From positions 1 through 64,000 of IMG/VR virus record IMGVR_UViG_3300034044_000040: DNA of 64,000 nucleotides; one strand, written 5' to 3'. The translations under genes were made by a program, and so were the position numbers. This DNA comes from a virus. The notes under the pieces are model-generated. The model had not been told where the DNA came from and did no database searches. It saw nothing but the letters and a program-made list of their open reading frames with translations. Positions 1-63,112 of this stretch are shown in pieces; the first letter of the stretch is position 1; every line of letters starts with the position of its first letter.

Positions 1-176
1 GGATAGAGCGGGTTTTCCTTTCGTTTTCACGCTCCATCCACCCCCCCTGCGCATCATAGACCCCCTCGTGGTGCGCAGGGATCATCCCCCCAGATATATG
101 ATCCCCTCCCCAGCCTGATCCAGCAATTGATCAGGTTGTGTTTGCAACCAGTTGCAATTTTTACTGTATTTTTCTC

Positions 177-204
177 TTGCAAATAATCGTGGTTGTGTTA
201 TGCT
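177..204 (+). promoter_or_regulatory. Early sigma70-like promoter, family copy 1
   Basis: TTGCAA-ataatcgtggttgtgt-TATGCT with an upstream T-tract; purine-rich leader and ATG at 235. Confidence 0.8.
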
Positions 205-234
205 GTAAAAGTCAGAAGAGAGAAAGGGACAAGC

Positions 235-621
235 ATGTCGAGATACGCATATATTGGTCGTCGCATACAGAACGGCAAACTACAGCACTGCTTCAAGGAA
301 AAGGGCGACGACGCACGCATCGTTTGGTGGCCGAAGGCCAAGGTTGCCAGATTTCGTGGGGCCTTGATAGGGTTCATCTACGAAATCGGAGAGAGCCTGC
401 CCGACAGATGGGCAGATGCCGAGGTAGGCACGGTGGCTGAGGGCCGCAGATTGCGCTGGCAGACCGAGGATATGGCTGCGAACATGCACGCCAAGGAAAT
501 CAAACGCAGCGTTACCCCGGACCTTGACCGGTATGTGGACGCATTGCGGGATGCCCGTAAAATGGTGCCACGCAGTCAGCAGGCGGCGTTCGACGCATGG
601 CTGCTCAACAAGATCAGATAG
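235..621 (+). CDS. hypothetical early protein
   Basis: ATG 235 after AAGGGA RBS, directly downstream of the promoter. Confidence 0.7.
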   Translation: MSRYAYIGRRIQNGKLQHCFKEKGDDARIVWWPKAKVARFRGALIGFIYEIGESLPDRWADAEVGTVAEGRRLRWQTEDMAANMHAKEIKRSVTPDLDRYVDALRDARKMVPRSQQAAFDAWLLNKIR

Positions 622-628
622 GGAGGAC

Positions 629-985
629 ATGAACGTGACAGCATATATCACGGTGATCTCGGCGGAAGGGGGCGGGATCACCACCACCGAGGTGCCCGGC
701 GCGGAGAACATACTCCCCATTTTGCAGGAGGCGGTTGGCGGTTTCATAGAAATCGTGCCCTTCTGGGATCAGTGGACCCACGAGGGAAACACGGTGCCTT
801 GCATCGTCTATTGCAACGAAGAGGGCAAGATCAGGAAGCTCCCCGTGAACGAGGAGGCCACCAAACAATGGGCACACGCGGTGAAGGCCACCTTGCCTGA
901 CATGATCGGCAGGGTGCTGCCCGACATACTGGTGGGGGATGTCGTGATCTGCCACGGTGATGAAACCTTCATGAGGGAAATGTGA
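629..985 (+). CDS. DUF3846-like protein
   Basis: LQEAVGGFIE...YCNEEGK...LPVNEEAT...DILVGDVVI motifs; GGGAGG RBS. Confidence 0.7.
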   Translation: MNVTAYITVISAEGGGITTTEVPGAENILPILQEAVGGFIEIVPFWDQWTHEGNTVPCIVYCNEEGKIRKLPVNEEATKQWAHAVKATLPDMIGRVLPDILVGDVVICHGDETFMREM

Positions 986-1347
986 TGACCAAAACATCTA
1001 CAAAACAAGAGATATCAGACGATCTGGACGCGGTGATGAACAATCACTTCACCGGTCTATACCTCAATCTCAACAAGGTGGGGGATACCCTGTTCGATTG
1101 GATGAATTTCATGCACAAGCCCCACTTCTGGCAGCTGCGCAAGAGGCGGATGTACCGGGAGGTTTACTGGCTTTTCGCAATGCACGGCCTGTGGCTGACA
1201 GACACGGATGCCGACAAATTCCTGATGACACGCGGGCAGCAACCTGATGAAGATTACGGGGGCAGCATCGTGCGCAGGTTGCGCGAGGTGTGGCAATACC
1301 AGATGGGCGTGCCGTTCAGTGTGTTCAATCCAAAGAAGGGGAAATAA
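985..1347 (+). CDS. hypothetical protein
   Basis: TGATG coupling with the upstream gene. Confidence 0.6.
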   Translation: MTKTSTKQEISDDLDAVMNNHFTGLYLNLNKVGDTLFDWMNFMHKPHFWQLRKRRMYREVYWLFAMHGLWLTDTDADKFLMTRGQQPDEDYGGSIVRRLREVWQYQMGVPFSVFNPKKGK

Positions 1348-1349
1348 CC

Positions 1350-2114
1350 ATGGCACACGGAAACGGGAAAACCTTCAGGGAAGTGGTGGCACAAGTCCCC
1401 ATGCCTCCCAAGATCGCGGCGCTGCCCAAGGACAAAAGAGGGCTGCCCATCCCATATATCGTGTATAACGACGAGCAGGGGCCGCAGTTCATCGTCAACG
1501 ATATGGAGAAGGTGATGAACGGATGCTTCGCGAAAGGGCTGTGCTCTGTGACCGGCACCAAGCTCGATCCGGATGATACATGGCTGATCGGGGGGTTCGG
1601 GTCCGCCTTTGATCCGCGCGGGCTGTATAATGACCCGCCGGTGTGCGGAGCAGCTGTACGATATGCCATGCGGGTGTGTCCCTATCTCGCAATGCCTCAG
1701 TACGCGAAGATGAAGGCCAAGGCGAAGGCAGACCTGATGGAGAAGTATATCGCATTCGATCCCACCATGGATGCCAATAAACCAGAGGCGTTCGCGGTGA
1801 CCCGGATCACGGGATACGTCGTGCTGGCGTTCAAGCGCCGGAAGGAAGACTACCCGGAGGGTACAGACCCGCGCATCTTGGAAACCCCTGAATACAAAAT
1901 TTGCCCGAACCGCCCGGCAAAAGAAATCCAAGTGTGGCAGGGAGGCACCATGATCAGAAGTGAAACTGATCCGGAGCGTATTGCAGGATTTTACATTCAG
2001 GGTATACACGAGGCGATACGCGAAGGCTATGGCACGGATCAGTACGCCAGTTTTCAGCGCAAATCCCTGTCCAATGCGTTTGAGGGCAGATGGCCATGGA
2101 AGGATGGGAAGTGA
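1350..2114 (+). CDS. conserved phage hypothetical protein (RGLPIPY...LCxxxG...DPP...CPYL family)
   Basis: AAGGGG RBS, ATG 1350; Cys/Pro motif pattern I recall from phage and actinobacterial proteins. Confidence 0.65.
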   Translation: MAHGNGKTFREVVAQVPMPPKIAALPKDKRGLPIPYIVYNDEQGPQFIVNDMEKVMNGCFAKGLCSVTGTKLDPDDTWLIGGFGSAFDPRGLYNDPPVCGAAVRYAMRVCPYLAMPQYAKMKAKAKADLMEKYIAFDPTMDANKPEAFAVTRITGYVVLAFKRRKEDYPEGTDPRILETPEYKICPNRPAKEIQVWQGGTMIRSETDPERIAGFYIQGIHEAIREGYGTDQYASFQRKSLSNAFEGRWPWKDGK

Positions 2115-2557: not shown

Positions 2558-2620
2558 GATACCAGTTAACAAACCGACGCTCTGCACAGTCGTGCAACCC
2601 GTTGCAACCAGTTGCAAATC

Positions 2621-4945: not shown

Positions 4946-5042
4946 CACCACTCACGGTGGGGGGATGGCCACGGCTGTCCCCCATTTCACACGATCAACG
5001 ACACATGTAGATTTGCAACGGGGTGCAATTAAGGTGAGAAAT

Positions 5043-7250: not shown

Positions 7251-7666
7251 ATATGCAATGCACACCGAAGAAGCACACGAACGGTCAGCTTGCGTCGGCA
7301 GCCAAGCAGATCAACCCCGCCTATGTGGAATTCCTCGAAGAAGAAAATCGCACGCTGAAAGCGATCCTGTCCGGGTCTGACGAAGAGATAATCCTACCAC
7401 CCGGAGTGCATTTGACTGCGCGCCAGCTGCAAGTGATATCAACCATAGTGGCCCGCAAGGGGGACGTGGCATCGAAGGCAATGATACACCAAGCCCTCTA
7501 TTCTGACAGGCCGGACGGTGGCCCTACCCTTCTGGTCATCGACGTGTTGATATCCCAGATCAGGAAGCGGGTGGCGGGTGCTTTCGATATCGAAACACTG
7601 CACGGGCGGGGATACCGGATAAGCAGGGACGACATCGCAAAACTGGCAGGAGAACTCCCATGGTGA
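7247..7666 (+). CDS. OmpR/PhoB-type (CtrA-like) winged-helix protein without receiver domain
   Basis: HLTARQ...RKG...LY...VIDVLISQIRKR...IETLHGRGYRI. Confidence 0.85.
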   Translation: MNMQCTPKKHTNGQLASAAKQINPAYVEFLEEENRTLKAILSGSDEEIILPPGVHLTARQLQVISTIVARKGDVASKAMIHQALYSDRPDGGPTLLVIDVLISQIRKRVAGAFDIETLHGRGYRISRDDIAKLAGELPW

Positions 7667-7862: not shown

Positions 7863-8174
7863 ATGACGAAGAAGAAAGAGAAGCGGACGCGGCCATGGCC
7901 CTCGCCTGATCCGGTGACAGCTGAAGATCAATCGGCCATACAGCCTGAGACCGCGAAATCAGAGGGCACCAAGGTTCCAGAAGACACGAGCCATCCTGTG
8001 CAACCCGTTGCAAACGGGCCGTTCAAGGCACCTTTCGAAGCCTACGGGGTCACCGTGAAGGATGCTGACGGTCGGACTGTTTGCCTGTGCGCGACATCCG
8101 CCCCTTGGAATACCAGAACGAAGGCGGCGGGCTGGATCGCGGATGCACTGAACACAGCGTCATCACCGTCCTGA
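7863..8174 (+). CDS. hypothetical protein
   Basis: AAGGA RBS; followed by a terminator. Confidence 0.6.
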   Translation: MTKKKEKRTRPWPSPDPVTAEDQSAIQPETAKSEGTKVPEDTSHPVQPVANGPFKAPFEAYGVTVKDADGRTVCLCATSAPWNTRTKAAGWIADALNTASSPS

Positions 8175-8777: not shown

Positions 8778-9020
8778 TTTGTGATAGTCCCGTGCAACGG
8801 GTTGCAAATTCATGGTGGTACACCCTTCAGAACCGGGGCAGACGGGCACATGTGGCGGTAAAATAAATAGTGACAACCCCTTTAGATTTTGTTAAGTATA
8901 TCCTACACACTGCCACGCGAGGGGGCTGACAAACTTGTTTGTGACATCAACCGGGTGGACCAGTAAATGACCTGCTCAAAAGCAGGCTGACGGGGGACCA
9001 CTGACACACGATGGGAGACA

Positions 9021-9871: not shown

Positions 9872-11809
9872 ATGACCGCTTTAACGCTTACAGACCAACG
9901 CCCATGCGCGCTGAATTTTCTCAAACAAGAGACGGAATACCGCAAATACGGGACCACGTTTTACCACACCGACACGAATTCGGATCACGTTCTGCACCTG
10001 CCCATCGTAGGTCTTCTGATCACGAAACACCCAAGCTGGGATTACTATGTGAAGAAGCACTTCTGGCTGGACCAAATTGCTGAAAACCCAGACATGACAG
10101 AACCTACTGAATGCCTCACCGCTGCACTGGTGCTGGCCCCGCGCCTGACCAAAAACCAGCTGGATTACATAGATTGGTTCACTCAGTCACAGTTTACCCG
10201 AGTGTGGAGCGAAGAAACGAATTCGTTCGTCTTGTTCCGCAAGGTGATGTACGAGAATTACACCTACAGTGCTCCGAGGGAGGTGCGTGCTCACGCGCAA
10301 ATCAGGAGCACGTGTGGTCGCCCCTATGTCACCGCGCATTTTCATGAGGAGCAGGGCGACCCCGCGCGGGTATGGGTTACGCAGGATGCCGTGGACGTGG
10401 CGATAACGGTGGGTTACGCGATCAGCCGGGCCATCGGCAAATCAGATTACACCATCTATATTCACCCTTGCGGGGCACGTAACATTGAGGGCTTCGATAT
10501 CAACCGCGCAGCCGTGAGAAACATGGTAACCGCATGGAACCAGCTTAACGCGGGTCCGGAGGAAGGGGAGCAGGAGAATGTAGCAGATGCCAGCCGGTTT
10601 AGCACCTTCGACACGCATGAAGCGGTACGCATCCTGCGGCCCGTCAGCCGGGACATGGACCTTCCCATACGTGCAGACGCCGATGTGTCCAAGAACACGC
10701 TTGACAGGCAATCTGTCACTGGGCTGTGCAGGAGTATCAAAGCGATCACGAAGCGCCAGAAGGAAAAAATGGAAATGCCGAAAGCCGCAGGCAGGCTGAT
10801 AAACTTCGGCATAGACGAAGAGAAGGCACCTGACACCGCACTCGTGCCGAGAGATTTCATGGATGGGTTTTCCTACGACCGTGGCACCAGCTATGACAAT
10901 ACCATCGGTGATCTCATGGTCATCGGGCTTACGAAATCACTCACACCGATCAGGTTCCAGCCCGTCACCACTGAGTGGGTGGTGGACAGAAACTTGACGA
11001 GTGACATACTCAGCATCGAGCATTCCGCGATGTGGACCCGAGAACTGCGCACGTCATGGCTGTCACCGGAGAGCCGGGTGTATGTGCACAAAAGCGCCAC
11101 GCATTTCAGGTTCCTGTTTGCTGTAAAAGTCAACGCTGTATTACCAATACGGCTCAGCTCGATGACCAAATTTCCCGTGTTCATTTGTTTTGGGCACAAT
11201 GTACCGGTCGCTGGCATCAACACCGACTTCAGGACGACTTGGCGCGGCGCGCATCCTGATCTCATCGCTGCAATCAACGCGGTTCCGGGACTTCCCATCG
11301 CCTTGGTGTCCGCCCTGAATGAGGCCGGGGCGCAGATGAAGAAGATATCTGGGGATGCTGACACCTTTTGGGGGTTGTTCAATGCAGAGCGTCCATGCGA
11401 CGGGCATGTCATAGCGTTTACAGGATGGGGCCGCGAAGAAATAGAACGCCTCGACGATGAAGTAGGGATGACACGTGATGAAGATCAACGATCAATGTAT
11501 TACAGGACGTGGAAGGATAAATACGGTTTTGGCGGGAGCAACATAGATTACCGCAGAGACGGCCTGTGGAGCGTTCACAAAATAAGGGCGCGTGGATACC
11601 GGGGCCGGGGCGTTCCTTACCCTCGGGTGCTGGATTACGCGAAGCGGTGCTTCGCCAACGTGGGCAAAAACCTGATCGTGACCGCCGCCCCACGGACGGA
11701 GGGAAGCAATCTAAAATTGCAACCAGTTGCACGGCATCTGGATATCGACAACGAAACTGATATCCGGAAGAACGATTACCGGCTGAACAGGACCGTGAAC
11801 CTGTTTTGA
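9872..11809 (+). CDS. large hypothetical early protein (645 aa)
   Basis: GAGGGA RBS behind promoter copy 4; no family recognised. Confidence 0.75.
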   Translation: MTALTLTDQRPCALNFLKQETEYRKYGTTFYHTDTNSDHVLHLPIVGLLITKHPSWDYYVKKHFWLDQIAENPDMTEPTECLTAALVLAPRLTKNQLDYIDWFTQSQFTRVWSEETNSFVLFRKVMYENYTYSAPREVRAHAQIRSTCGRPYVTAHFHEEQGDPARVWVTQDAVDVAITVGYAISRAIGKSDYTIYIHPCGARNIEGFDINRAAVRNMVTAWNQLNAGPEEGEQENVADASRFSTFDTHEAVRILRPVSRDMDLPIRADADVSKNTLDRQSVTGLCRSIKAITKRQKEKMEMPKAAGRLINFGIDEEKAPDTALVPRDFMDGFSYDRGTSYDNTIGDLMVIGLTKSLTPIRFQPVTTEWVVDRNLTSDILSIEHSAMWTRELRTSWLSPESRVYVHKSATHFRFLFAVKVNAVLPIRLSSMTKFPVFICFGHNVPVAGINTDFRTTWRGAHPDLIAAINAVPGLPIALVSALNEAGAQMKKISGDADTFWGLFNAERPCDGHVIAFTGWGREEIERLDDEVGMTRDEDQRSMYYRTWKDKYGFGGSNIDYRRDGLWSVHKIRARGYRGRGVPYPRVLDYAKRCFANVGKNLIVTAAPRTEGSNLKLQPVARHLDIDNETDIRKNDYRLNRTVNLF

Positions 11810-14853: not shown

Positions 14854-14964
14854 TATTTCGTGCAACGGGTTGCAACGTGATTTAAGATAGGCTACAAATG
14901 CTGGTGACGAAGCCAGCGTACCCTCTGGCATCAGAGATTATATTTCACGCAGGCCATCGAACAC

Positions 14965-15589: not shown

Positions 15590-16930
15590 ATGAAACGTAA
15601 ACCTAAAACGAACATCGTCACGGCCCGTGCCCTGACTGATCCTGATCCCGCATTTGTATCTCTGGTCAAAGGCGGTGCAAACCAGCGGCCCTATCGGGCT
15701 GTTAAAATGGAGAGCGTCGAAGCGACGGCTCCACATGAAACCCGAAAGGAAAGTGACATGTCGAAGACACAGATTGTGCCGGAAGGCCACGACATCGCCG
15801 CGTTGAAGTTTGCATCCAAGCACTTCGCGGACGAACACGCCGTGGAAGCATGGCTGAAGCAAGGCGGATATGAAGGCTATAAGATCGAGAAGACCAAAGC
15901 TGGCTTCGAGGTCAATGCCACCGATGTGACCTTCAAGGAAGGTTCGCTGACGAAAGTGGATGGGGCCGTGAGCGGCCTGACCGTGTATATCGGTGAACTT
16001 GAGGGTGAGACACCTGCCGAGAAATCGGAAGACGAACAGGTTGCAGAGCACGCGGAAGACAACACCAGCGCCGTGCAACCAGTTGCAAAAAAAGGTGAAG
16101 CCCCCGTTGCTGATGCAGCGGATGAGGCCAAGGTCAAAGCCACGGTAAAAACCAGCGCCAAAACCAAGGCCACGGCAGATACCAAGGTTGAGAAAGCCGA
16201 CGCAGACACCAACGCGGTGGAAGCCGTGGCGGCGGATGATGAAAAAGTGGATGTGGCCAAAATGGTTGAAGACTTCATTGCCTCCAAAAAAGGCAACTAT
16301 GAGGTTTCCATGTTGTCCATGGTGCTGATGGACCTTGCCTACCTCGTGATGGATGCGGACTATATGGGCACGGACGACGCCACGGTTTCGCAGATCAAGA
16401 CGGCTGCAAAGACCCTCATCACCGCCCTGACCAATGAAATGGGTAACAGCGTTGCAGCCTTTGAAGATGCGTTCAAGGCCATTGCGGCGAAGCATGGTGT
16501 GGTTATCTCGGAAGCACCCGCAGCTGAAGCGGACGTACCTCCGGCTGACACCGCTACCCCGGCAGACGAAGCTGGTGTGGCAACGAAATCCGACGACGCC
16601 GGAGAGGGCACGAAGGATGAACTGGTAGTGAAGAAGGATGATCCTTTGATCGCTGCCATCGCAGGGCTGACAAATGCTGTTGCCGGTATGAAAACCGACA
16701 TGGCAGCCAGCCTGAAAGAGATCAACGATAAGGTGGATGCCACCAAGGCGGAGATCAATGAGCGGGTTGAAGCGGTCGAGACGACCTCGCAGTCCCGCAA
16801 AGGAGCAGATGTTACCGGTGATACGGAAGAAGCAACAGCCGATGCAGCGCAGAAAGCCGAAGGTGAAAACCGGAAGCGTAAAGTCCGCCTTGCATCCGCG
16901 CTGGGGCATCCAAACCCTGATCGCGTGTAA
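15590..16930 (+). CDS. scaffold/prohead protein
   Basis: Acidic, Ala/Lys-rich; between protease and capsid; N-terminal FVSLVKGGAN. Confidence 0.7.
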   Translation: MKRKPKTNIVTARALTDPDPAFVSLVKGGANQRPYRAVKMESVEATAPHETRKESDMSKTQIVPEGHDIAALKFASKHFADEHAVEAWLKQGGYEGYKIEKTKAGFEVNATDVTFKEGSLTKVDGAVSGLTVYIGELEGETPAEKSEDEQVAEHAEDNTSAVQPVAKKGEAPVADAADEAKVKATVKTSAKTKATADTKVEKADADTNAVEAVAADDEKVDVAKMVEDFIASKKGNYEVSMLSMVLMDLAYLVMDADYMGTDDATVSQIKTAAKTLITALTNEMGNSVAAFEDAFKAIAAKHGVVISEAPAAEADVPPADTATPADEAGVATKSDDAGEGTKDELVVKKDDPLIAAIAGLTNAVAGMKTDMAASLKEINDKVDATKAEINERVEAVETTSQSRKGADVTGDTEEATADAAQKAEGENRKRKVRLASALGHPNPDRV

Positions 16931-16984
16931 CGCAGCACCTCTATTGCAACACTCTTGTAGCTTCAACAAAAAGGAAACCAAGCT

Positions 16985-17914
16985 ATGACAACTGAACTGT
17001 CCCGCAAAGCGGACCTCGCCCTCGCCGATCTTACGGCAGGCGGCGGTGTGCTCGATCCCGAACATCAGAATACCTTCTTTCAGAAGGTGATTGATGCTCC
17101 CACCATTTTCCGCGATGTACGCAGCGTGCAGATGGGTGGCCCTGAAATGAAAATCCCGAAGATCGGGTTTGGTTCTCGCGTATTGCGCGCCGCGCCGGTT
17201 GACGGTGGTGCTCAGGACGCTGGTAGCAACACCCGGCACCTGCCTTCGGCGGATCGTTCCAAGCCTGATTTTGGTCTGGTCACAATGAAGACCTCGGAAT
17301 TCATCGCGGAAATCCACCTGCATGATGACCTTCTGGAAGACAACTTGGAAAAAGAAGACCTCGTTGACACCATCATGAGCCTGCTGGCCGAGCGCGTTGC
17401 CCTCGACCTCGAAGAACTTCTGGTATCCGGTGACACGGCGTCGGCTGATGCATATCTCGCCGCGCAAGACGGTATTCTGAAACGGCTGACCACAAATGTG
17501 GTTGACGCATCTGCGGCTCCGATTTCCGCAACCGTGTTCAACAACATGAAGAAGGCCATGCCGACCAAGTATCGCCGGAACCTGAACGCCATGCGGTTCT
17601 ACACCTCGATGGATCAGGAAAGCGATTATCGTCTGGCCGTGTCGAGCCGTGGCACCAGCCTCGGTGATGCGATCCTGACCGGTAACACTCCGCTGCCCGT
17701 GCTTGGTATCCCGATGCGTCCCGTGGCACTTATGCCCGAGAGCAACGGTCTGCTGATCAACCCGCAGAACGTGATCTTCGGTATCCAGCGCAACATCCGC
17801 ATTGAGCGTGCCCGTGACATCCGCGCCCGTTCGTGGATCATCGTGCTGACAATGCGCGTGGCCATCCAGATCGAGGAGGAAGAGGCAGCTGTCAAGCTGA
17901 TCAACCTCGGCTAA
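16985..17914 (+). CDS. major capsid protein (HK97 fold, XkdG-like)
   Basis: GGVLDPE, LLEDNLE, ERVALDLEELLVSGD, DGILK; position; strong codon bias. Confidence 0.9.
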   Translation: MTTELSRKADLALADLTAGGGVLDPEHQNTFFQKVIDAPTIFRDVRSVQMGGPEMKIPKIGFGSRVLRAAPVDGGAQDAGSNTRHLPSADRSKPDFGLVTMKTSEFIAEIHLHDDLLEDNLEKEDLVDTIMSLLAERVALDLEELLVSGDTASADAYLAAQDGILKRLTTNVVDASAAPISATVFNNMKKAMPTKYRRNLNAMRFYTSMDQESDYRLAVSSRGTSLGDAILTGNTPLPVLGIPMRPVALMPESNGLLINPQNVIFGIQRNIRIERARDIRARSWIIVLTMRVAIQIEEEEAAVKLINLG

Positions 17915-17982
17915 ATCCTGAAGTGAGGGGGCAGCATCCGCTGTCCCCACATCCACACCCACTATGACTTAGGAGACACCCC

Positions 17983-18174
17983 ATGAAAATCACACCGCAA
18001 GGCGAGATTGTAGGAGGCGACAGTGGCCATCCGGGTACGGTCTTGTTCGCCCTCGCAAAAGCCCTTTTTGGGGTTGACGCGAATGGCCACGTGACCATCC
18101 CCGATGATCTCACCGCCGCCCCAACTTCATTCACCTCTGCCAGCTTCGTAGCTGAAGTGAACCTGAAAACGTAA
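17983..18174 (+). CDS. small virion protein
   Basis: AGGAG RBS; follows the capsid gene. Confidence 0.6.
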   Translation: MKITPQGEIVGGDSGHPGTVLFALAKALFGVDANGHVTIPDDLTAAPTSFTSASFVAEVNLKT

Positions 18175-18249
18175 CCCTGATCCCCAACCTGAGAGTTGGG
18201 GGTCTTTCATCTTTTTGTTATCTTGGCATCAACAGAAAAGGAAGCCAAC

Positions 18250-18622: not shown

Positions 18623-19324
18623 ATGAGCATGACCACCCTTCCCATAGTCACACTGGCAACAGCCAAGACGTTCCTGAACCTGAGAGACAGTAACATTGCG
18701 CATGACGCGACCATCAACCTCATGGTAATCGCGGCAAGTGCAGAGATTGAACACGCCATCGGTCGCACCTTGGCGCAGGCGGTGCAGACAGAGCGGTTCA
18801 ATACGAGACGCACTTCCTACGTGGCGCTTGACTTGGGTGGGGAAAGCGAAAGTGGTACTGTGTCCCGCGCGACACGACAGAGCTACTATCTATCTGGGTT
18901 GTTTCCTGATGTGACTGCCGGTGTGAAAGTGTGGTATGATCCGGGCTTCACCTTCGACGATAGCAGCCTCCTCAAAGAGGGATCGGATTTCTACCTCGAC
19001 TGGAACGAAATGTATCTGACGCTGTTCACCGGCACCGCGAGCACGGTAAAAGGGGTGAAAGTGGAATACACTGCCGGGATCGTTCCTGATGCGGGGACGC
19101 TGGAAACGAACGCACCCGCAGACATAAAATTGGCGTGTCTCTATCAAACCGCGTTCCTGTTCAAACGCCACCGGGAAGATGCGGTTGGCATGACCGGAGA
19201 TCGTGGTGTACAGACCAAGCAAAGTAACGTACACGTCGGGGCGTGGAATGCACAGCAGGGTCTCTGCCAAGAGGCGCAGGGACAAATCAGGAAATACAAG
19301 CAGCTTTTGACTGGACGAGGATGA
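18623..19324 (+). CDS. head-tail connector/adaptor
   Basis: IVTLATAKTFL...AASAEIE...GR...VKVEYTAG...PADIKLAC. Confidence 0.8.
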   Translation: MSMTTLPIVTLATAKTFLNLRDSNIAHDATINLMVIAASAEIEHAIGRTLAQAVQTERFNTRRTSYVALDLGGESESGTVSRATRQSYYLSGLFPDVTAGVKVWYDPGFTFDDSSLLKEGSDFYLDWNEMYLTLFTGTASTVKGVKVEYTAGIVPDAGTLETNAPADIKLACLYQTAFLFKRHREDAVGMTGDRGVQTKQSNVHVGAWNAQQGLCQEAQGQIRKYKQLLTGRG

Positions 19325-19971: not shown

Positions 19972-19972
19972 T

Positions 19973-41985: not shown

Positions 41986-41993
41986 AATATGTC

Positions 41994-42021: not shown

Positions 42022-42053
42022 AAAGTATAGATCAGAGAGAAAGGAAAACATCT

Positions 42054-42521: not shown

Positions 42522-42571
42522 TCAAAACTGACCGTGCGGACAAATCGTAGATTAGAAAGAAGGATAACGAC

Positions 42572-42775
42572 ATGAAAACGATCACAGTGACAATTCCACA
42601 GTATGGATCACCAAAGGTGGAGGCCAATGGTTTTGACGGTGAGGGTTGTGCAGCCGCCACCAAGCCGATTGAACAGGCCCTGTCCGGAAACATCAAAGCT
42701 GATGTGGAATACAAGCCGGAATGGTCAAACCCGGAAACCCACTCAGAGCATGAGGAGGAAACCCTGAAATGGTAA
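42572..42775 (+). CDS. DUF2997-like protein
   Basis: ITVTI...G...VEANGFDGEGC...T..IEQAL.G......KPEW. Confidence 0.8.
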   Translation: MKTITVTIPQYGSPKVEANGFDGEGCAAATKPIEQALSGNIKADVEYKPEWSNPETHSEHEEETLKW

Positions 42776-43116: not shown

Positions 43117-43271
43117 TCCCGAAAACTTTTCGTTGCAACCCGTTGCATAATTCAAGACAGCCAAAGGGCACGACGGAAATGTACACAAGCTATGGGGAGT
43201 GCTGATAATGTGCTCCCCACATATGGTGTAAAGGGGAAAATCTGATAAAATTTATACCGCTCACAAAATGA

Positions 43272-43458: not shown

Positions 43459-44967
43459 ATGGGCACACCGATAATGAATAACACAGAGAGCGTCGTAATC
43501 AATTTTGATCCGATAGGGCCAACACGTGTTGGGGACAAATTTGAAAGAGGGCTGTCGGGTGACAAGATAACACCCCTTGATCGCCAGAGCGTTGTGCAAC
43601 ATTTGAGCCGGGTGTGGAGAGCGCACCTCACACCCACAGAGGGATGGGTGATGTTGTATATCCTAGACAGATCAGTTGATTGGGGTAAACCCACATTTAA
43701 GGCGAGCCATGGCAACGTGATAAATGGTGCACCCGGATATGCAGGCGTCGGCATGGGTAGATCAGCTTACCTCAGCGTGTTATCCTCTTTGGAGAAAAAA
43801 GGGGCCATTATCCGGAAGCCTTTGGCAAAATGCACAGAGATCGGCATAAATTTTAAGTGGAACCCGGAGGATAAAACCATGTTGCTGCCCGTTCCAAAGC
43901 GCAAGCAGTCCGGAAAACAGGACGCCTCACCCGTCCGGAAAACCGGACTATACCCGTCCGGAAAACCGGACACAGAAGAAAGAGAGTTAAAGAAAGAAAG
44001 TACCCTTACCGGATCGCCTTCGGCTCACCGGGGTGGTTTTGAAAATTCTCTTTCCGGAAAAGACAAAAAACCAGAAATTTTGCCGGACGAAAATTGCAAC
44101 CCGTTGCAGCGGGGCAAAGAGGCCACAGACACCATCCGGGATCGGCTGACTACCATGCAATCTTCGATGACACGCAAAACAGTTGTGGCTGCGGAAGTCT
44201 CGAAAACAAAAAAGAAACCGAACGCCGCCGACATGGAGCGCGTGTTCGTGCTCGCAATGAAAGAAACTTTTCCAGACATCAACCACGTGCGGTGGGGCAA
44301 GGTTCAGAAGGCTAAGGTGAAACGTGCGATGGCTGCATATTCTTTTGACAACACGATCACGCTTCCCGCTCTGATCGACTGGGGCGTCAGAAACTGGAAA
44401 CCTCTGCTATCCGGACCCTTCAGTTTCATGACAAACGCCTGTGACGTGCCCTCGATAAATTATCTGCTGTCGGAGGGCGTGACCCGGCTTTTGGCCAGTG
44501 CATACGCGAGCAAATCCCTAAAGGCCCTCGCGAACGATTTTGAGGTGGACGAATTGACCCGCCTGAAGGCACGCGGCATGACTGAGGAAGAGGCCCTCGC
44601 ACATATCGGCGAGGCCCGCGCGGCGCGCAGGATGCGTGAGGAGAACGAGAAAATAAAGCGGGATGCTGCAAATAAGCTGGCACAGGCTGCGGATAGAGAA
44701 GATCGCGCGGCGCGTCTTGAGGGTATCGGGGAAAAACTTCTGGAGGCTGGGGTGCCCGTCACTCCGGTTGCCGCGAAAAAACCGGGGCAGGTGTGGGGTG
44801 GTCAGGCCATACCGCATCCCGATAGTCCAGCGATGCGAGAAAAACGCAGACTTGCCCGTGCCTACACAGAGAGGGTTGAAACACCTGCACAAACAAGGAC
44901 ACCTCGCAAGTGGGAAGATGTGGTCGCATTGAGAAATGCTGCTCGGGGTACAAATCAAGATGACTGA
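43459..44967 (+). CDS. replication initiator (lambda O-like, N-terminal wHTH)
   Basis: LTPTE..VMLYILDR...WGK...GMGRS....LSSLEKKG; internal iterons; upstream of loader and helicase. Confidence 0.7.
   Translation: MGTPIMNNTESVVINFDPIGPTRVGDKFERGLSGDKITPLDRQSVVQHLSRVWRAHLTPTEGWVMLYILDRSVDWGKPTFKASHGNVINGAPGYAGVGMGRSAYLSVLSSLEKKGAIIRKPLAKCTEIGINFKWNPEDKTMLLPVPKRKQSGKQDASPVRKTGLYPSGKPDTEERELKKESTLTGSPSAHRGGFENSLSGKDKKPEILPDENCNPLQRGKEATDTIRDRLTTMQSSMTRKTVVAAEVSKTKKKPNAADMERVFVLAMKETFPDINHVRWGKVQKAKVKRAMAAYSFDNTITLPALIDWGVRNWKPLLSGPFSFMTNACDVPSINYLLSEGVTRLLASAYASKSLKALANDFEVDELTRLKARGMTEEEALAHIGEARAARRMREENEKIKRDAANKLAQAADREDRAARLEGIGEKLLEAGVPVTPVAAKKPGQVWGGQAIPHPDSPAMREKRRLARAYTERVETPAQTRTPRKWEDVVALRNAARGTNQDD
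43908..43971. repeat. iterons / putative replication origin
   Basis: GTCCGGAAAAC(A/C)GGAC at 43908, 43933, 43956; each is a hyphenated palindrome; A-rich tract follows. Confidence 0.75.
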
Positions 44968-50277: not shown

Positions 50278-50309
50278 GGGGCGTCTCTGTTTCTGTCCGG
50301 AGACGCCCC
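50278..50309 (+). terminator. hairpin/terminator
   Basis: GGGGCGTCTC...GAGACGCCCC followed by ATTATTT. Confidence 0.6.
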
Positions 50310-50333
50310 ATTATTTGCAACGGGTTGCACGTA

Positions 50334-53030: not shown

Positions 53031-53191
53031 GGGGTAGCTCAAAGGCTGGATGACTTTTCTGTTTTCAAGACGGCCTCTAAATGTCAACGAAACCAGTGGA
53101 GGGGAGGGCGCGACACATATTTGGCATGATCAGATATACGTCACGTCCCCCCACTCCTACAGATACACCGTATTTTGCAACGGGTTGCACA

Positions 53192-54656: not shown

Positions 54657-55214
54657 ATGACCCAGAAAGATGACCGCAATAATCGCCGTGCAGACCGGTA
54701 CGAAACGGATGAAATATATCGCAACAAGGCGCAGAACAGGTCGCGAGCCTCGTACCGCCAGAAAACCGGCATGTCCCTGCGCGATCCACGCGAGAACCTG
54801 AGCCATCTTGATGACTTTGGAAAGACGCGCATGACACACCTTCCGGGCGGGGACGCTTACCGGTGGGTTTTCACAAAGATGGAAGTCGCTGAGGTATTCG
54901 GCAGAACCCCGAAGATGTTCTACCGGTGGGTTAATGACGGGCGTTTCCCTGCCCCGGTGGTGACCGCGATAGACTATCCAATCACACGGGATTATAAGAA
55001 CCAGATGGGTGTCAAGGTTCCTCAGACCGTGGAGGTCTATACCGCAGAAGAGGTTAAGGCTGCACTCCTCGTGCTGGGCCAGCATCTTTCGGAGGTCGCA
55101 TACTATCGAAATGATCACGAAACGCAGCGCCGCAATCTCTACGCTGTCATGCAGACCGCACGAAAAAGCATCGGCCTTCCTGAATTTGCCGATACGAAAG
55201 GGGGCAAAAAATGA
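54657..55214 (+). CDS. HTH DNA-binding protein (MerR/AlpA-like)
   Basis: FTKMEVAEVFGRTPKMFYRWVNDGRFPAP. Confidence 0.75.
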   Translation: MTQKDDRNNRRADRYETDEIYRNKAQNRSRASYRQKTGMSLRDPRENLSHLDDFGKTRMTHLPGGDAYRWVFTKMEVAEVFGRTPKMFYRWVNDGRFPAPVVTAIDYPITRDYKNQMGVKVPQTVEVYTAEEVKAALLVLGQHLSEVAYYRNDHETQRRNLYAVMQTARKSIGLPEFADTKGGKK

Positions 55215-55584: not shown

Positions 55585-56721
55585 ATGAATATGACACGTG
55601 ATCGCAAACCCCCGAGCGCCAGTGAAGCAACACCTGCGGAGAACTTGGTTGATGCCAGTCAGGCGTTTCTAGAGCGGGGGGAACTCGGTGCCCTCATGGG
55701 GCAGGTATCAAAGATACACGGCCCGAACGTAATCCGGGCAGCAGAATTGCGGCCCCGTTTCAAGCACATACCCACGAACGTGTTTTCCCTTGACCTCGCG
55801 CTGCACGGTGGGTTCCCGGAAGGTGCCGTATCACTGGTATACGGGCGGGCCGGATCGGGCAAAACCACCATTTGTATGCGGACGCTGGCTTCAGCGCAAA
55901 AGAAATATCCTGACATGGCCACGGTATTTGTCGATATTGAGGGCACCTACCAGCCCGAATGGGGGGAACGTCACGGTATCGACAACAGCCGCCTCGCCTT
56001 GATCCAGCCTGACAGCGGGGAGCAAGCGCTCGATCTTGCAGCCGCAGCAGTATCTGCAAATGAAGTGTCGTGCATAGTGGTTGACAGTCTGGCAGCCCTT
56101 ACCCCCATGAAAGAACTGAACAAGTCTATGGAAGACCTGACAGTTGGGGAGCAGGGGAAGCTGATCGCAAGATTTTGCAGGGTCACCTGCGCAAAGCTGA
56201 ATTCAGAGCGTCGGCGCGGACACAGACCGGCGTTGTTGTGGATTAATCAATGGCGGCAGAAAATCGGCGTGATGTTCGGTGATCCCCGCGTCCTACCCGG
56301 TGGTGAGGCGCAGCACTATACCGCATCCACAAAAGTTGAAATGAAAAACAAAGAGCAAATGGGCAAGGATGCTGAGGGCAATCACATCGTTGATTACAAC
56401 GAACATGCCTTCAAGGTGGACAAATCGAAGATCGGCGTCGGTATCCGCGAGGGTGAATTCACCATGATACGAAACCCGGATAATCCTCTGGGCATGGGGT
56501 TCATAGATGAGGCCCGCACCGTGATAAACTGGGCACGAAAGCACGACCTGATCACTGGCGGCGGGTCATCGTGGCGGGTGAACGACGTCGATACAAAATT
56601 TGGTAGGCTTCAGGAAATCGCGGATTATTTTTATTCCGATGATGAATTCTACGACGCTTTCAAGCAACAGCTGATCCGGGCGTATCGGGTAAAATGTGAT
56701 CTGAAAGAGGAGTATCTGTGA
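55585..56721 (+). CDS. recA: recombinase RecA
   Basis: LDLALHGGFP, YGRAGSGKTT, QPDSGEQAL, VVDSLAAL, INQWRQKIGVMFGDP..PGG. Confidence 0.96.
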   Translation: MNMTRDRKPPSASEATPAENLVDASQAFLERGELGALMGQVSKIHGPNVIRAAELRPRFKHIPTNVFSLDLALHGGFPEGAVSLVYGRAGSGKTTICMRTLASAQKKYPDMATVFVDIEGTYQPEWGERHGIDNSRLALIQPDSGEQALDLAAAAVSANEVSCIVVDSLAALTPMKELNKSMEDLTVGEQGKLIARFCRVTCAKLNSERRRGHRPALLWINQWRQKIGVMFGDPRVLPGGEAQHYTASTKVEMKNKEQMGKDAEGNHIVDYNEHAFKVDKSKIGVGIREGEFTMIRNPDNPLGMGFIDEARTVINWARKHDLITGGGSSWRVNDVDTKFGRLQEIADYFYSDDEFYDAFKQQLIRAYRVKCDLKEEYL

Positions 56722-57116
56722 CCTTACCAACACCAAAACGATTGGGCGGTGGTAACCGGCAGCACGCCAGTGTCAGGCGCTCCAAAGAGCAGGAGGCCAG
56801 CACCGCTTTACGGATGGGCGGTCGGGTCACGAAGCAATCTGGGGGTGGAATTTTCGAAAAAGGTGACGTTCGGGTAAAATCGGTGGTACGGGTTGAAAGC
56901 AAGACAACGAAAAATAAATCTTTTTCGGTGACCGCGCAGATCATTGACAAGATCGAAACACAGGCGCTGGCCTCCGGGGAGGTACCAGTCGTGGACGTGG
57001 AGATAGACAACGCGGGAACACCACGCAGCGTGTATGTTGTGCCTCAGTGGGCGCTTGATGGCATTATTCAGGAATTACAGGAATTACGAGGTAGGGATAG
57101 GGATGGGACTTCTTAA
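56718..57116 (+). CDS. Hjc-like PD-(D/E)xK resolvase/endonuclease
   Basis: QE...A...GG.....SG.....KGDV......VESK. Confidence 0.7.
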   Translation: MTLPTPKRLGGGNRQHASVRRSKEQEASTALRMGGRVTKQSGGGIFEKGDVRVKSVVRVESKTTKNKSFSVTAQIIDKIETQALASGEVPVVDVEIDNAGTPRSVYVVPQWALDGIIQELQELRGRDRDGTS

Positions 57117-58064: not shown

Positions 58065-58655
58065 ATGCAGATCAGAGATAGAGCCTCCCCGGCCCGCGCC
58101 ATTTTTTTGGAGGGTGCAACCCGTTGCACGCATGTCACCAATCCGCATCCCGTGTTAGGTATAGACGCTTCCGCCAGCAAAATAGGTTTTGCCGTTGCAT
58201 GGGATGGGTACATCAAAACATGGCTGTACAAGCCGAAAGGAACTGGCGTGGTCAGAATTGATGAGCACTACAGGAACATCAAGGAAGTGGTTGATCTTTA
58301 TGACATCCGCACGGCAGCGATAGAGGGATATTCCTTCGGGTCGCGCGCCAGTCAGGCGCACACCACGGGTGAATGTGGTGGGGCCGTGAAACTCGGCTTG
58401 CGGCACAAAGGGGTGCAGCTGATTTTGGTATCACCAAACACCTTGAAAATGTATGTCACATCGAAGGGAAACAGCCCGAAGAACGCGATACCCCTTGGCC
58501 TCTATAAATTATGGGGGCTTGACATCACGCAGGAAGATGAGGCTGACGCCGCCGGGATCGCCATGCTCGGGGCCGCGTATTATCACGCTGACGCATTCAC
58601 CCTTTTGAAATATCAGCAAAAAGCCATGAAAGGGGTCAATCCGGTGAACGACTAG
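58065..58655 (+). CDS. ruvC: RuvC-like Holliday junction resolvase
   Basis: LGIDAS...GFA, IEGYSF, GE.GG, P..LKMYV...GN..K, DEADA. Confidence 0.85.
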   Translation: MQIRDRASPARAIFLEGATRCTHVTNPHPVLGIDASASKIGFAVAWDGYIKTWLYKPKGTGVVRIDEHYRNIKEVVDLYDIRTAAIEGYSFGSRASQAHTTGECGGAVKLGLRHKGVQLILVSPNTLKMYVTSKGNSPKNAIPLGLYKLWGLDITQEDEADAAGIAMLGAAYYHADAFTLLKYQQKAMKGVNPVND

Positions 58656-58697
58656 CGAGGATATACAGTGCAGCGTGCAACCCGTTGCAATTTTCTC

Positions 58698-58725
58698 TTG
58701 CATATAATCGTGGTTGTGGTATTGT
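58698..58725 (+). promoter_or_regulatory. Early promoter, family copy 8 (abuts palindrome 58676)
   Basis: TTGCAT-ataatcgtggttgtgg-TATTGT. Confidence 0.8.
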
Positions 58726-58796: not shown

Positions 58797-60137
58797 ATGA
58801 CATCTAACACGCAGAACATCAAAGTCGGAATGATCGCCACGTTCGGTGGATATTCCGATCTGGAGGAAGGAATGGAAGCCATCCTTCCAGAGGGGCAGCG
58901 TATCGTCATCGCGGACATCAAACCAAACGGTGCCGGGTACACGGTCGTCGCCATCAACGAAGAGGGCCAGCGGCTGAACGCCGATGGTGAGGTATGGAAA
59001 GAGGGCGATGCTGTGCTTGGGGACACCCTTTTCCCCTCAGAAATTCTTGACATCGAAGACCCCACACCTACCCCGGCTGAAGCAGACACAACGGAAGCTG
59101 CCCCGGAAACTGAAGCCGCCGCACCTGCGGAAGTCTTCGAAGATGATTTCACCGCAGCCGCAGTCAAAAAAATGACCGGGCCTCAACTCGTGGACATCGC
59201 GAGCCGATATGGCGTTGCAGTCCCCGATGGGTTTGCAAAAATGCTGGTCAAAAACAAGCGCGACGTGATCCTTGCATGGCTGGCGGAACAGGAAGCCAAA
59301 GAAGACGCAGACGAAACCGCCACCGATGAAGCGGAAACACCTGAAACTGAAGCCCCAGATACTGAGGTGGTTTCTACCATGCCCGATATGGTGCCAGCCA
59401 CCGCACCTGTCACCGCCGTGTCTGATATGGATCGGGTCAACGAACTGACTGCGGAAAAGGATGCAGTGCAGGCCGTGAAAGACCTGATTTCTCAGGAAAA
59501 CCGCATCCTCTATGATCAGGGGTGCTTGCTGACCTATATCAACGAAACCGGCATGTACAAATCATACGGCTTCGAAGGCAAGAAAGGGTTCGAAGATTTC
59601 TGCGAGAAATATCTCGACATCAAATATCGCAAGGCGCGGTACCTGATCGACATTTTCCAGACGTTCAAACAGATCGGCATCAACGTGGCCAGTCTGGATG
59701 CAATCGGCTGGTCGAAAGCGGCTGTTTTGGCCCGTATCCCGGTTGATCAGCTGGAGGCAAACATCGAAAGCCTGCTGGCGCTGGCCCAGTCAGAAACCCG
59801 TGATGCGCTGATCGAGCACGTCAAGGAAAACTACGAGATTGCCACCCGCGCCGATACCGTGAAGGCTACCACCTTCCGGTTCAAGGTGTTGGAAGCTGAT
59901 GCGGACGTGGTTACCGCTGCCCTCGATCACGCCAAGACCTTGGTGGAAGACGGCGACCTGAACAAAGCGTTTGTGCACATGTGCGGGGACTGGATGAACA
60001 ACGCGGAGGGTACCGATCTTGATATGGATACCTTCTTTGATCTGGCCATCGCTCGGTTCGGCGCGGACGCCCTCATGGTCAAACTGGACGCGCTTTCGGC
60101 GGAGCCTGCGGAAGAAACTCAGGCAGAGGCCGGATGA
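58797..60137 (+). CDS. acidic protein with putative HTH (DUF3102-like) domain
   Basis: LTYI....YKSYG...FEDFCEKYLDIKYRKARYLIDI...IGWSKA; strong codon bias. Confidence 0.7.
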   Translation: MTSNTQNIKVGMIATFGGYSDLEEGMEAILPEGQRIVIADIKPNGAGYTVVAINEEGQRLNADGEVWKEGDAVLGDTLFPSEILDIEDPTPTPAEADTTEAAPETEAAAPAEVFEDDFTAAAVKKMTGPQLVDIASRYGVAVPDGFAKMLVKNKRDVILAWLAEQEAKEDADETATDEAETPETEAPDTEVVSTMPDMVPATAPVTAVSDMDRVNELTAEKDAVQAVKDLISQENRILYDQGCLLTYINETGMYKSYGFEGKKGFEDFCEKYLDIKYRKARYLIDIFQTFKQIGINVASLDAIGWSKAAVLARIPVDQLEANIESLLALAQSETRDALIEHVKENYEIATRADTVKATTFRFKVLEADADVVTAALDHAKTLVEDGDLNKAFVHMCGDWMNNAEGTDLDMDTFFDLAIARFGADALMVKLDALSAEPAEETQAEAG

Positions 60138-61465: not shown

Positions 61466-61736
61466 ACCAGATGGGCAGAACGATGAAATGAGCGGGGCTT
61501 TAAATGCGCTTATGGATTACGAGCAAGCTGACGCGGATGGCGTAATGGTACTCGTCTCAAGGCAGGCCATTCATGAAGTTGTTGCCGAATACAAGGTTCT
61601 CACCTCCAAGTTGGATGACCTGCGACCTCTGCTGGCGGTTGCCACTGAAGTCTCATTGTACGGTGCAAACGTAGCACGACTACGGAAACTCGATGAACTG
61701 ATATCTGGGTTGTATAAGGGGAAGTCAAATGGCTGA
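61458..61736 (+). CDS. hypothetical protein
   Basis: AAGGAG RBS; overlapping chain of ORFs. Confidence 0.6.
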   Translation: MTKPDGQNDEMSGALNALMDYEQADADGVMVLVSRQAIHEVVAEYKVLTSKLDDLRPLLAVATEVSLYGANVARLRKLDELISGLYKGKSNG

Positions 61737-62010
61737 TAAATTACCTGACCGCATGTACATTTCGCCACATAATTCAGGGGCTGTCGGTGGAAATTGGCAC
61801 AACGCCAGCACGATACCGATCCGGGGGCTGGTGAAGTACATCCGGGCTTCCATGATGCTCGTCTTAGACAGTGACGAAATCACCGCTCTGCGTGCCGAGA
61901 ATGAACGGCTGCGGAAGGCGTTGGACGAAATAGCGTGCAACCATCACTCGCGCAATTTGCTATGGTGGCAGATGGCCGCCCGCGCCGCCCTATCGGAGAC
62001 AGAAACATGA
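61729..62010 (+). CDS. hypothetical protein
   Basis: AAGGGG RBS; LRAENERLRKAL...ARAAL coiled coil. Confidence 0.6.
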   Translation: MADKLPDRMYISPHNSGAVGGNWHNASTIPIRGLVKYIRASMMLVLDSDEITALRAENERLRKALDEIACNHHSRNLLWWQMAARAALSETET

Positions 62011-62267
62011 ACAGAGAAACAAAACCCTCGCGCCCAGAATGCGCATGGGGGATAAAAATGAAATATTACAACTGCGACGAATGGTTTCTGTGGGCAAGAG
62101 TGTTCACGTACCGGCGAGACGCTATAGATTATTATAACCGATTCCAAGGCGACCCGAATGCATACCGACGTGAGAGAAGGCGCGGAATTGTGAAGGCAGT
62201 GCGCGTGACGATTTCGGAGACAGAAACCACCCCGGCCAATAACGGCCAAACCAAAGAAGGAAACTGA
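62007..62267 (+). CDS. hypothetical protein
   Basis: GGAG RBS; ATGA overlap. Confidence 0.55.
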   Translation: MNRETKPSRPECAWGIKMKYYNCDEWFLWARVFTYRRDAIDYYNRFQGDPNAYRRERRRGIVKAVRVTISETETTPANNGQTKEGN

Positions 62268-62268
62268 A

Positions 62269-63015
62269 ATGAAATTCATCAAAAAATATATCGTCTATAT
62301 CGTGGCGGCGCTTTCCGCCCTTGTGGCTCTTGCCATTTACACGGGATCGGCCAAGGCGGGTAGCATCACCACGACTATCCTAGACTCCGTGGTGATTGCA
62401 CCACAAAAATCCGATCCATGGACAGGCCCCCTGATCGGCGCGGGCGCAGGCGTCCTGCACTCGACACAGAAAATCAGGACACCGACGGTGACTGATCTGC
62501 CTCCGGGTGATTATGACCTGCCACCAGAACTCGTGGGTAATCCTGATTTGAACACCCTACCAAGCTGTCGCGGCTTTTCACGGGACTGTGCTTCCCGGCG
62601 TAACGGTGCCGGTGATATCACCCAGACATGGCTTACCGATGGGATGGCGCTGCAAACTGGCACGCACACCACGAAGCGGAGCCGCACGGATGCTGCGGGC
62701 ACGGCATACCTCGGATACCGGCACAATTTCTACCCCGTGGTGATCGGTGCCGTGGGATCGGCGACTTACAACTTTGGAAATGATGCGTGGCTGTTCAATG
62801 CAGAAGCACAGGCTGGCGTTGGCTACGGGAAAACACTGATCTATGCCCTCGCGGGGCCGAGCAGCTACGACAAGAAACGTGGATACGTCGCGGGTCTTGG
62901 CGTTGACAGGATGATCACCACCAAAATGGGCGTGAGCGCGAAATATTACCACGGTGAATATGGTCACGGTAAATCACTTGACTATGGCCTGCTATCGGTG
63001 TTCTTTAATCTCTGA
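62269..63015 (+). CDS. outer-membrane beta-barrel protein (Omp25/RopB-like)
   Basis: Signal peptide (SAKA|G), PWTG..IG, alternating beta-strands, aromatic C-terminal strand. Confidence 0.7.
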   Translation: MKFIKKYIVYIVAALSALVALAIYTGSAKAGSITTTILDSVVIAPQKSDPWTGPLIGAGAGVLHSTQKIRTPTVTDLPPGDYDLPPELVGNPDLNTLPSCRGFSRDCASRRNGAGDITQTWLTDGMALQTGTHTTKRSRTDAAGTAYLGYRHNFYPVVIGAVGSATYNFGNDAWLFNAEAQAGVGYGKTLIYALAGPSSYDKKRGYVAGLGVDRMITTKMGVSAKYYHGEYGHGKSLDYGLLSVFFNL

Positions 63016-63043
63016 CATCCTCGTCACATAGTTGCCTCCAACT

Positions 63044-63080
63044 GCCCGTCACCCTTCTGTTCCGGTGACGGGCTTTTTTT
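63044..63080 (+). terminator. rho-independent terminator
   Basis: GCCCGTCACC...GGTGACGGGC followed by T7. Confidence 0.85.
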
Positions 63081-63112
63081 GTAAATTATTTGCAACCCGT
63101 TGCATTTTTTCC

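Follow-up and report, generated by a model that had tools for sequence, protein, structure and literature searches.

The first 64,000 bases of the 85,340-bp IMG/VR virus record IMGVR_UViG_3300034044_000040 (the window; the record, from an uncultured phage, has terminal repeats and its genome is labelled G000 here) carry 21 exact copies of a 14-bp palindrome, TGCAACNNGTTGCA (TGCAAC-NN-GTTGCA), that recurs, with lineage-specific changes at its centre, throughout a group of related phages. From sequence comparison we propose, with a probability of roughly 0.45, that these palindromes are docking sites in duplex DNA for a dimeric phage-encoded protein, most likely the product of the gene at 58797–60137, and that the system would have a genome-wide role in transcription.

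Number and form of the sites

The exact word was absent from all 100 dinucleotide-preserving shuffles of the window, and its 21 copies agree in number and in every coordinate with those listed in an earlier note made from the window sequence alone. Allowing one mismatch gave 23 matches, compared with 0.23 expected, and recovered both near-copies reported in that note, at 5014 (TGCAACGGGGTGCA) and 36881 (TGCAACCCGCTGCA). The full-genome count that the note proposed as a check gave 29 exact sites in the 85,340-bp record, about one per 3 kb. The two central bases are CC in 10 window sites, GG in 4, CA in 4 and TG in 3, so that a centre restricted to CC/GG or CA/TG, as the note described it, holds for the window but not for the relatives, where AA/TT, AT, AG/CT, GC, CG and GT/AC are also found. 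The 5' flank is T or G at 21/21 window sites, as claimed, whereas the proposed 3' flank of A or C is present at 18 of 21 and fails at 43134 (T), 44095 (G) and 63091 (T). The suggestion of one single site, TGCAACCMGTTGCA, was not supported by the comparison with relatives, whose sites combine invariant TGCAA/TTGCA arms with a centre that varies freely or by lineage.

Conservation among phages and occurrence in hosts

Judged by the capsid protein, the closest cultured relatives are the Rhizobium phages L338C, P11VFA and RHph_I4 (63–64% identity), followed by Aeromonas phage HJ05, Agrobacterium phage JP1, SIO-2-like Vibrio phages and Stenotrophomonas phage DLP5. The outer arms TGCAA/TTGCA were found 16–48 times per genome in relatives from Rhizobium, Aeromonas, Agrobacterium, Vibrio and Stenotrophomonas, the motif-bearing set comprising G001–G004 (our labels, as are the other G numbers), L338C, RHph_I4, HJ05, JP1, V-YDF132, DLP_5, G044 and G045. 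These genomes range from 45 to 63% G+C and their hosts are alpha- and gammaproteobacterial. The exact word TGCAAC-NN-GTTGCA is present 48 times in G001, 28 in G002, 23 in G003, 37 in G004, 47 in L338C (plus 12 copies with a one-base centre), 45 in RHph_I4 and 16 in HJ05; its place is taken by TGCAAA-NN-TTTGCA in JP1 (33 copies), TGCAATTAATTGCA in V-YDF132 (25), TGCAAT-NN-ATTGCA in DLP_5 (27) and TGCAAG-NN-CTTGCA in G045 (22). The central four bases are lineage-specific, and within each genome the arms are exact to 10–12 bases. A more distant relative, G005 (36% capsid identity), has a different replication module and no sites.

Two relatives have sites of unusual form or arrangement. The main site of G044 is asymmetric (TGCAAG-TG-GTTGCA, about 20 copies), which means that the two half-sites need not match. 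In G045, four sites lie exactly 73 bp apart (26513–26745) in tandem repeats, each with a second palindrome, AAAAGTGTACACACTTTT, in what looks like an iteron or centromere array.

In 31 genomes of the genus Rhizobium (~184 Mb), 14 sites were found, compared with 26 for a reversed control. Five genomes selected for holding the 14-mer have 1–3 sites each, and a scan of genome contigs returned at least 120 stretches, nearly all with a single match. The earlier note had held that a similar density in the host genome would speak against a phage system; there is no enrichment in Rhizobium, to which the hosts of the nearest cultured relatives belong. These counts rule out a host-factor site for this genus. 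The lattice is a feature of the phage clade, not of the host. Three exact TGCAACSSGTTGCA sites were also observed within 5 kb of a Sphingomonadales metagenome-assembled genome (MAG; G011, contig C12, 23568–28203), in an island adjoining obg/proB that carries a serine recombinase, an SRAP protein and genes of unknown kind.

Placement along the genome

Sites are concentrated between genes: non-coding DNA makes up 7–12% of G000–G004 and holds 97 of their 165 sites. By our own crude gene calls, which set the gene boundaries for all placements given here, 8 of the 21 window sites and 11 of the 29 genomic sites are genic. Many sites start 0–8 nt past a stop codon or directly after a canonical terminator (e.g. 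that at 50278–50309). The placements described in the earlier note, upstream of the −35 of a repeated promoter (143, 58676 and 63091), past stop codons (8793, 14861, 21738, 36871, 39252 and 43134) and just ahead of an ATG (2603, 50316 and 53176), were all confirmed, with the distances listed in Table 1.

A TTGAC −35 box lies within 45 nt downstream of 70 of 313 sites across the genomes, compared with 2.5–6.2% of random positions. The gap is 7–9 nt in 33 of these 70, in Vibrio and Rhizobium phages alike, placing the centre of the site near −50; the full range is 3–40 nt, with minor groups near 11–12, 19–22 and 27–28 nt. Positions upstream of the portal, protease, AAA ATPase, 58797, ribonucleotide reductase (RNR) and first ParB_N genes are conserved, with a site preceding the portal gene in G000, G001–G004 and HJ05 and the head protease gene in 9 of the 10 motif-bearing genomes compared. 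Sites abutting the ATG of the helicase (G000–G003, L338C) or primase (G000, G001) mostly lack a Shine-Dalgarno sequence; the G001 primase site stands 11 nt ahead of its ATG. A start-associated sequence was nevertheless ruled out, as only ~4 of the 29 G000 sites abut an ATG. Many sites are remote from promoters. Their spacing is more regular than chance would give (coefficient of variation 0.47–0.85, compared with ~0.95 expected), with P < 0.005 in 6 of 10 genomes and no significance in G001, G003 and HJ05.

The G000 genome also contains a promoter family of ~45 bp in 13 copies, nine in the window (177, 3006, 9814, 39416, 41994, 49700, 58698, 60258 and 63113) and four beyond it (65205, 69798, 71116 and 79209), built of a T-rich upstream tract, TTGCAW-N16-TATKSY, the spacer AATCGTGGKTGTGG and a shared leader ending in GAGAAAGGA. 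Early-promoter families are likewise conserved in the relatives, each of which has one of its own. Another word, CTTGA(A/T)(A/C)TGTAGG, recurs ahead of the portal and head genes of G001–G004, L338C and JP1, at −35-like positions in structural-gene promoters, and is present inside early promoters of G004 too.

Selection on the DNA word

Among the 11 genic sites of G000, 9 use the reading frame free of cysteine codons (x-Q-x-V-A). The family of the gene at 19324 has a site at the same codons in five genomes, with the middle residue L, L, L, Q or R and the codons CAA, GTT and GCA kept; its homologues in G003 and JP1 have neither the site nor the peptide. G000 and G001 both retain a site in the gene before the portal gene, but each reads it in another frame. 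The three codons of the arms (CAA, GTT and GCA) presumably run contrary to the usual codons of genomes with 54–62% GC. This pattern indicates that selection acts at the DNA level, on the word itself. Intergenic sites are oriented CC 37 times and GG 33 times, showing no bias, and a strand-specific function is ruled out by this equality; the ratio of 34 CC to 6 GG among genic sites is due to coding constraint.

A candidate reader and a proposed mechanism

A hidden Markov model (HMM) of the protein family encoded at 58797–60137 found matches in 13/13 motif-bearing records holding the region, including the distant G045 (E 1.5e-12), and none in the motif-less G005, in G004, in the fragment G047 or in the MAG island. 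The G004 record starts within the RNR gene and ends after the tail genes, and is uninformative on candidate readers because it lacks the replication module. In 10 of 12 genomes the lineage's own variant of the motif lies within 260 nt upstream of the 58797-family gene, mostly 7–11 nt before a −35 box, a layout that would be expected of a self-regulated DNA-binding protein. Both this protein and the product of 54657 had been listed as possible binders in the earlier note, and they emerged as the first and second predicted binders; our ranking of candidate readers, all predicted rather than demonstrated, is 58797, then the MerR-like 54657, then the ParB_N proteins.

In the proposed mechanism, a dimer would read the invariant TGCAA/TTGCA arms, with the central four bases set by lineage. 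The product of 58797, an early gene, would dock at every site, about every 3 kb along the chromosome, probably also regulating itself, given that its own promoter has a site 8 nt upstream of the −35. The bound protein would act at the edges of transcription units, that is, near −50 of strong sigma-70-type promoters, past stop codons and terminators, and at the helicase and primase starts, where it would tune, silence or insulate transcription genome-wide.

Several observations weigh against this proposal. The 58797 protein matched no Pfam family at E ≤ 0.01, a PDB profile search was empty up to E 10, and its Atlas hints (DUF3102, ParB-HTH, Plasmid_parti_N) are weak, with a template-modelling (TM) score of ~0.3 and a model predicted local distance difference test (pLDDT) value of 0.57; it is the best candidate for the binder, its DNA binding being a prediction. 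The whole replication module has the same presence/absence pattern as 58797, so that co-occurrence discriminates poorly. The 58797 homologue of G045 has its nearest upstream site ~1.2 kb away, and no homologue of the 58797 or 54657 proteins was found in the Sphingomonadales MAG island. In G000, 11 of the 29 sites are genic. Of the 13 family promoters of G000, only three are closely preceded by a site, which rules out an obligatory upstream promoter element; a further one is followed by a site. Even spacing would be equally expected of transcription control, DNA organisation or replication.

Alternative readers and functions

A possible, if less probable, alternative is that the sites form, rather than a classical set of operators, an evenly spaced docking grid for the same uncharacterised 58797-type family, organising or insulating the replicating chromosome, with the reader and the site centres co-evolving by lineage. 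Such a grid could, for example, coordinate transcription units with replication and packaging, and would be of very long standing in 80–110 kb phages of many proteobacteria; the genic copies, the even spacing and the four-site array of G045 may be compatible with a DNA-organisation or replication role. We consider it unlikely that the reader is instead the MerR-type helix-turn-helix (HTH) protein of 54657–55214, binding the palindrome as a dimer and acting as a global transcription factor. No other conserved protein has recognisable DNA-binding signals: HTH_17 matches it at E 0.0016, short of the cut-off, the MerR_1 cut-off is passed by the short-form homologues of V-YDF132 and DLP_5, 10/10 named Atlas matches belong to the MerR/HTH_17 clan, with TM scores of 0.51–0.53 to phage 'HTH merR-type' clusters, and the best PDB match is BldC (E 0.12). 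Its family is large (636 representatives) and its gene is syntenic after the helicase gene in G001–G003, L338C, HJ05, V-YDF132, DLP_5, G048 and G044, the helicase operon starting with a site in five genomes. However, the family was undetected in the complete G045, which has 22 G-type sites, and in G046, its matches in JP1 and G044 are weak (E 1.8e-4 and 5e-4), and in 9 of 10 genomes the 400 nt ahead of its own ATG contain no site. MerR operators of the classical kind occupy the −35/−10 spacer of the promoter, whereas the sites here lie upstream of −35. A covariation rule pairing an Arg before the MerR-like recognition helix with G:C at position 6 fitted 6 of the 7 G:C cases and all 3 A:T cases, failed for G044 and was discarded. 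Reading by a ParB-type CTP clamp (76160, 76788 or 78551 of the genome), loaded at parS-, NBS- or OB-like sites and sliding to silence, partition or organise DNA, is improbable. ParB_N domains are present at 76160 (weakly), 76788 and 78551, adjoining a PAPS-reductase gene, 78551 aligns with Noc 7ol9 (E 0.0013), the 76160 orthologue has a site just upstream in G000–G004, L338C and JP1, and the even spacing would suit a clamp. The DLP3 paper reports that both DLP3 and DLP5 are temperate phages and that DLP5 was recovered in phagemid form, and its authors ascribe phagemid persistence to ParB-domain proteins (PMC7326821). Against this, ParB_N proteins were found in every genome, including the motif-less G005, 78551 has no counterpart in G001, G004 or HJ05, the regions after the ParB_N domain differ between lineages although the TGCAA arms are constant, and no ParA was seen among the ~80 proteins scanned from window and genome, a set that does not cover every small gene. 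The ParB_N proteins were judged unlikely as the conserved reader because they occur in G005 and their C-terminal halves are not conserved. The sites are moreover evenly dispersed, and the partition or parS-like role suggested in the earlier note gained no support, leaving from its picture of a genome-wide dimeric binder one symmetric site that is selected at the DNA level and is phage-wide rather than of host origin.

Use of the sites as replication or recombination landmarks rather than transcription signals, for helicase or primase loading, as origin-like iterons or as resolvase targets, seems more improbable than a ParB-type clamp. Sites are evenly spaced and abut the primase and helicase start codons, the 73-bp repeats of G045 are iteron-like, and the lattice goes together with a replication module (DnaB, PolA, primase, helicase, RecA-like protein and two resolvases), both being absent from G005; yet the gap to −35 boxes is fixed at 7–9 nt in many genomes, six-base arms would be too short for cruciform extrusion, and we know of no primase or helicase that reads a 14-bp duplex palindrome. 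Reading by a conserved host protein such as integration host factor (IHF) is very improbable. The IHF consensus, WATCAANNNNTTR, contains CAA-N4-TTG, with which the core of the sites agrees, the arms are constant across hosts of two proteobacterial classes, and many sites lie upstream of promoters. The lineage-specific centres and arms exact to 10–12 bases per genome are nevertheless unlike degenerate IHF sites, Rhizobium genomes are not enriched, and the related phage with a different replication module has no sites at all. Least credible of all is a role at the RNA level, with the palindrome folding into a hairpin that would serve termination, processing or translational control. As all genes are on one strand, transcription reads every site in one sense, and some sites stand in for the Shine-Dalgarno region of helicase and primase; but five 34-nt RNA folds had minimum free energies of −4.1 to −8.4 kcal/mol with z-scores of 0.17, 0.31, −1.80, −0.37 and 0.27, the best fold left the palindrome unused in 2 of the 5, no Rfam family matched the site, genuine terminators adjoin sites instead of containing them, and the two loop orientations are equally common between genes. 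An RNA hairpin or terminator was ruled out, as the site is not more stable than shuffled sequence and has no Rfam family.

Comparison with known systems

Judged by its layout, the lattice would belong with dispersed operator or docking-site arrays, its reader protein and function being predicted. KorB of the IncP plasmid RK2, a ParB-superfamily member in which an HTH follows the ParB_N (CTPase) domain, is a single self-regulating protein that controls many operons through operators (O_B) lying upstream of −35 or far from promoters, with CTP-dependent sliding and repression over long distances. The lattice resembles this system in having one short palindrome repeated around the replicon at variable promoter distances (29 sites; TTGAC gaps of 3–40 nt), and differs in that Pfam and PDB profiles show no ParB_N/CTPase or KorB domain in the 58797 protein, no KorA-like partner was identified, and the replicons are phages of 80–110 kb with 16–48 evenly spaced sites, many of them genic. 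The stoperators of mycobacteriophage L5 and Cluster A are asymmetric, oriented with transcription and read by the gp71 repressor, the immunity repressor of an integrating temperate phage. They share with the lattice dozens of identical sites in short intergenic gaps and over start and stop codons; here, in contrast, the site is a palindrome without orientation bias between genes (CC 37 : GG 33), and the system spans phages of several proteobacterial genera. In agreement with the earlier note, neither an integrase nor a CI/Cro-type repressor was found among the ~80 proteins scanned (not every small gene).

Cluster O mycobacteriophages such as Corndog have 17-bp dyad repeats for which no reader is known, with many exact palindrome copies at siphovirus gene junctions, as here; the sequence and the phage group differ, and the present lattice adds positional conservation within genes and a candidate reader gene. 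Noc, which is a paralogue of ParB and has a role in membrane tethering, binds NBS sites on the Bacillus subtilis chromosome. The likeness lies in a dispersed 14-bp palindrome serving as docking sites for one protein, which in that case are on a cellular chromosome, and the Noc-like 78551 is absent from several motif-bearing relatives. The lattice also differs from parS/ParABS systems, as its sites are evenly dispersed and not clustered beside a parA-parB operon. No description of the motif was found in the literature searched, and the words 'palindrom', 'inverted repeat' and 'promoter' have 0 occurrences in the available text of the DLP3 paper (PMC7326821).

Gene content and distribution of sites in the window

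All genes are on the + strand, as indicated by AT/GC skew and open reading frame (ORF) content. PHROGs and Pfam identified virion genes (portal, head protease, major capsid, tape measure and tail genes), replication and recombination genes (DnaB, PolA, primase, SF2 helicase, a RecA/UvsX-like protein, an exonuclease and two Holliday-junction resolvases) and genes of nucleotide metabolism and other functions (dUTPase, ThyX, PhoH and RNR). The two resolvase genes of this one replication module are different in kind (phrog_2002 at 56718–57116; RuvC-like phrog_159 at 58065–58655). At window positions 39485–43116, DUF1257 and DUF2997 genes follow one for a classic-clade AAA ATPase, an arrangement kept in G001–G003, L338C and HJ05, and 7253–7666 encodes a winged-helix protein of the OmpR/CtrA type (Trans_reg_C, E 1.9e-9) that lacks a receiver domain and has a counterpart in G001 alone. 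Helicase frames are 806–832 aa long in G001 (20511–23009) and G003 (oriented 15784–18204), compared with 482 aa in G000, and may contain an intein or other insertion.

Beyond the window, ~3.5 kb upstream of the presumed terminase genes, genome positions 76160–79135 hold two tandem ParB_N paralogues, a PAPS-reductase-family gene and an IbrB-like ParB. By eye only, both paralogues resemble a ribbon-helix-helix in their C-terminal parts. The 668-aa product of 82647–84653 had no Pfam match and is presumed to be the large terminase from its conservation in every relative but G005 and from the gene order of DLP3, which runs ParBc, hypothetical protein, large terminase in the available gene table (PMC7326821).

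Table 1. Palindromic sites and associated features of the window, with strand where assigned.
Feature	Position	Strand	Context
Site TGCAACCAGTTGCA	143–156		20 nt upstream of −35 of family promoter 177
Two overlapping sites (2593, 2603), 10-nt offset	2593–2616		Intergenic; second ends 4 nt before ATG
One-mismatch copy TGCAACGGGGTGCA	5014–5027		From mismatch search
Genic site	7999–8012		In gene 7863–8174, frame 1
Intergenic site	8793–8806		15 nt past stop codon
Genic site	11718–11731		3' end of gene 9872–11809; portal gene 170 nt on
Site	14861–14874		7 nt past stop, 90 nt ahead of head protease gene
Genic site	16074–16087		In gene 15590–16930; codon position as in G001
Genic site	19460–19473		In gene 19324–19971; codons L-Q-x-V-A shared with G001, G002, G004, L338C
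Site	21738–21751		1 nt past stop, 6 nt ahead of ATG
Genic site	29395–29408		In gene 29094–29615, frame 1
Genic site	32555–32568		In tail-fibre-like gene 32116–33549, frame 1
Site	36871–36894		2 nt past stop; one-mismatch copy 36881 overlaps at 10-nt offset
Intergenic site	39252–39265		9 nt past stop of ORF 38763–39242; family promoter 39416 (AAA ATPase operon) 150 nt downstream
Intergenic site	43134–43147		17 nt past stop
Genic site	44095–44108		In gene 43474–44967, frame 0
Strong terminator-like hairpin, 12 pairs	50278–50309	+	Directly before site 50316
Site	50316–50329		Ends 4 nt before primase ATG (50334); no Shine-Dalgarno sequence
Site	53176–53189		Ends 2 nt before helicase ATG (53192); likewise in G001, G002, G003, L338C
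Candidate binder 2, MerR-type HTH protein, 185 aa	54657–55214	+	Directly after helicase gene
Site	58115–58128		Near start of RuvC-like gene (58065–58655, our call)
Site	58676–58689		8 nt upstream of −35, promoter of gene 58797
Family promoter TTGCAT-N16-TATTGT	58698–58725	+	Predicted to drive gene 58797
Best candidate binder, 446 aa	58797–60137	+	Acidic N-terminal half, conserved C-terminal core
Site	63091–63104		After T-rich terminator tail; 8 nt upstream of −35 of family promoter 63113

Significance

Phages of Rhizobium, Agrobacterium, Aeromonas, Vibrio and Stenotrophomonas keep one DNA word exact at 16–48 places in each genome, which points to a conserved system that controls or organises the whole genome and is apparently undescribed in the literature searched. 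The reader can be tested directly in L338C, RHph_I4, HJ05, V-YDF132 and DLP5, as several of the phages and hosts are in culture. If the 58797 family is the reader, a protein family of unknown function would gain a role, and for annotators of this large phage clade the sites may serve as a landmark of transcription-unit boundaries.

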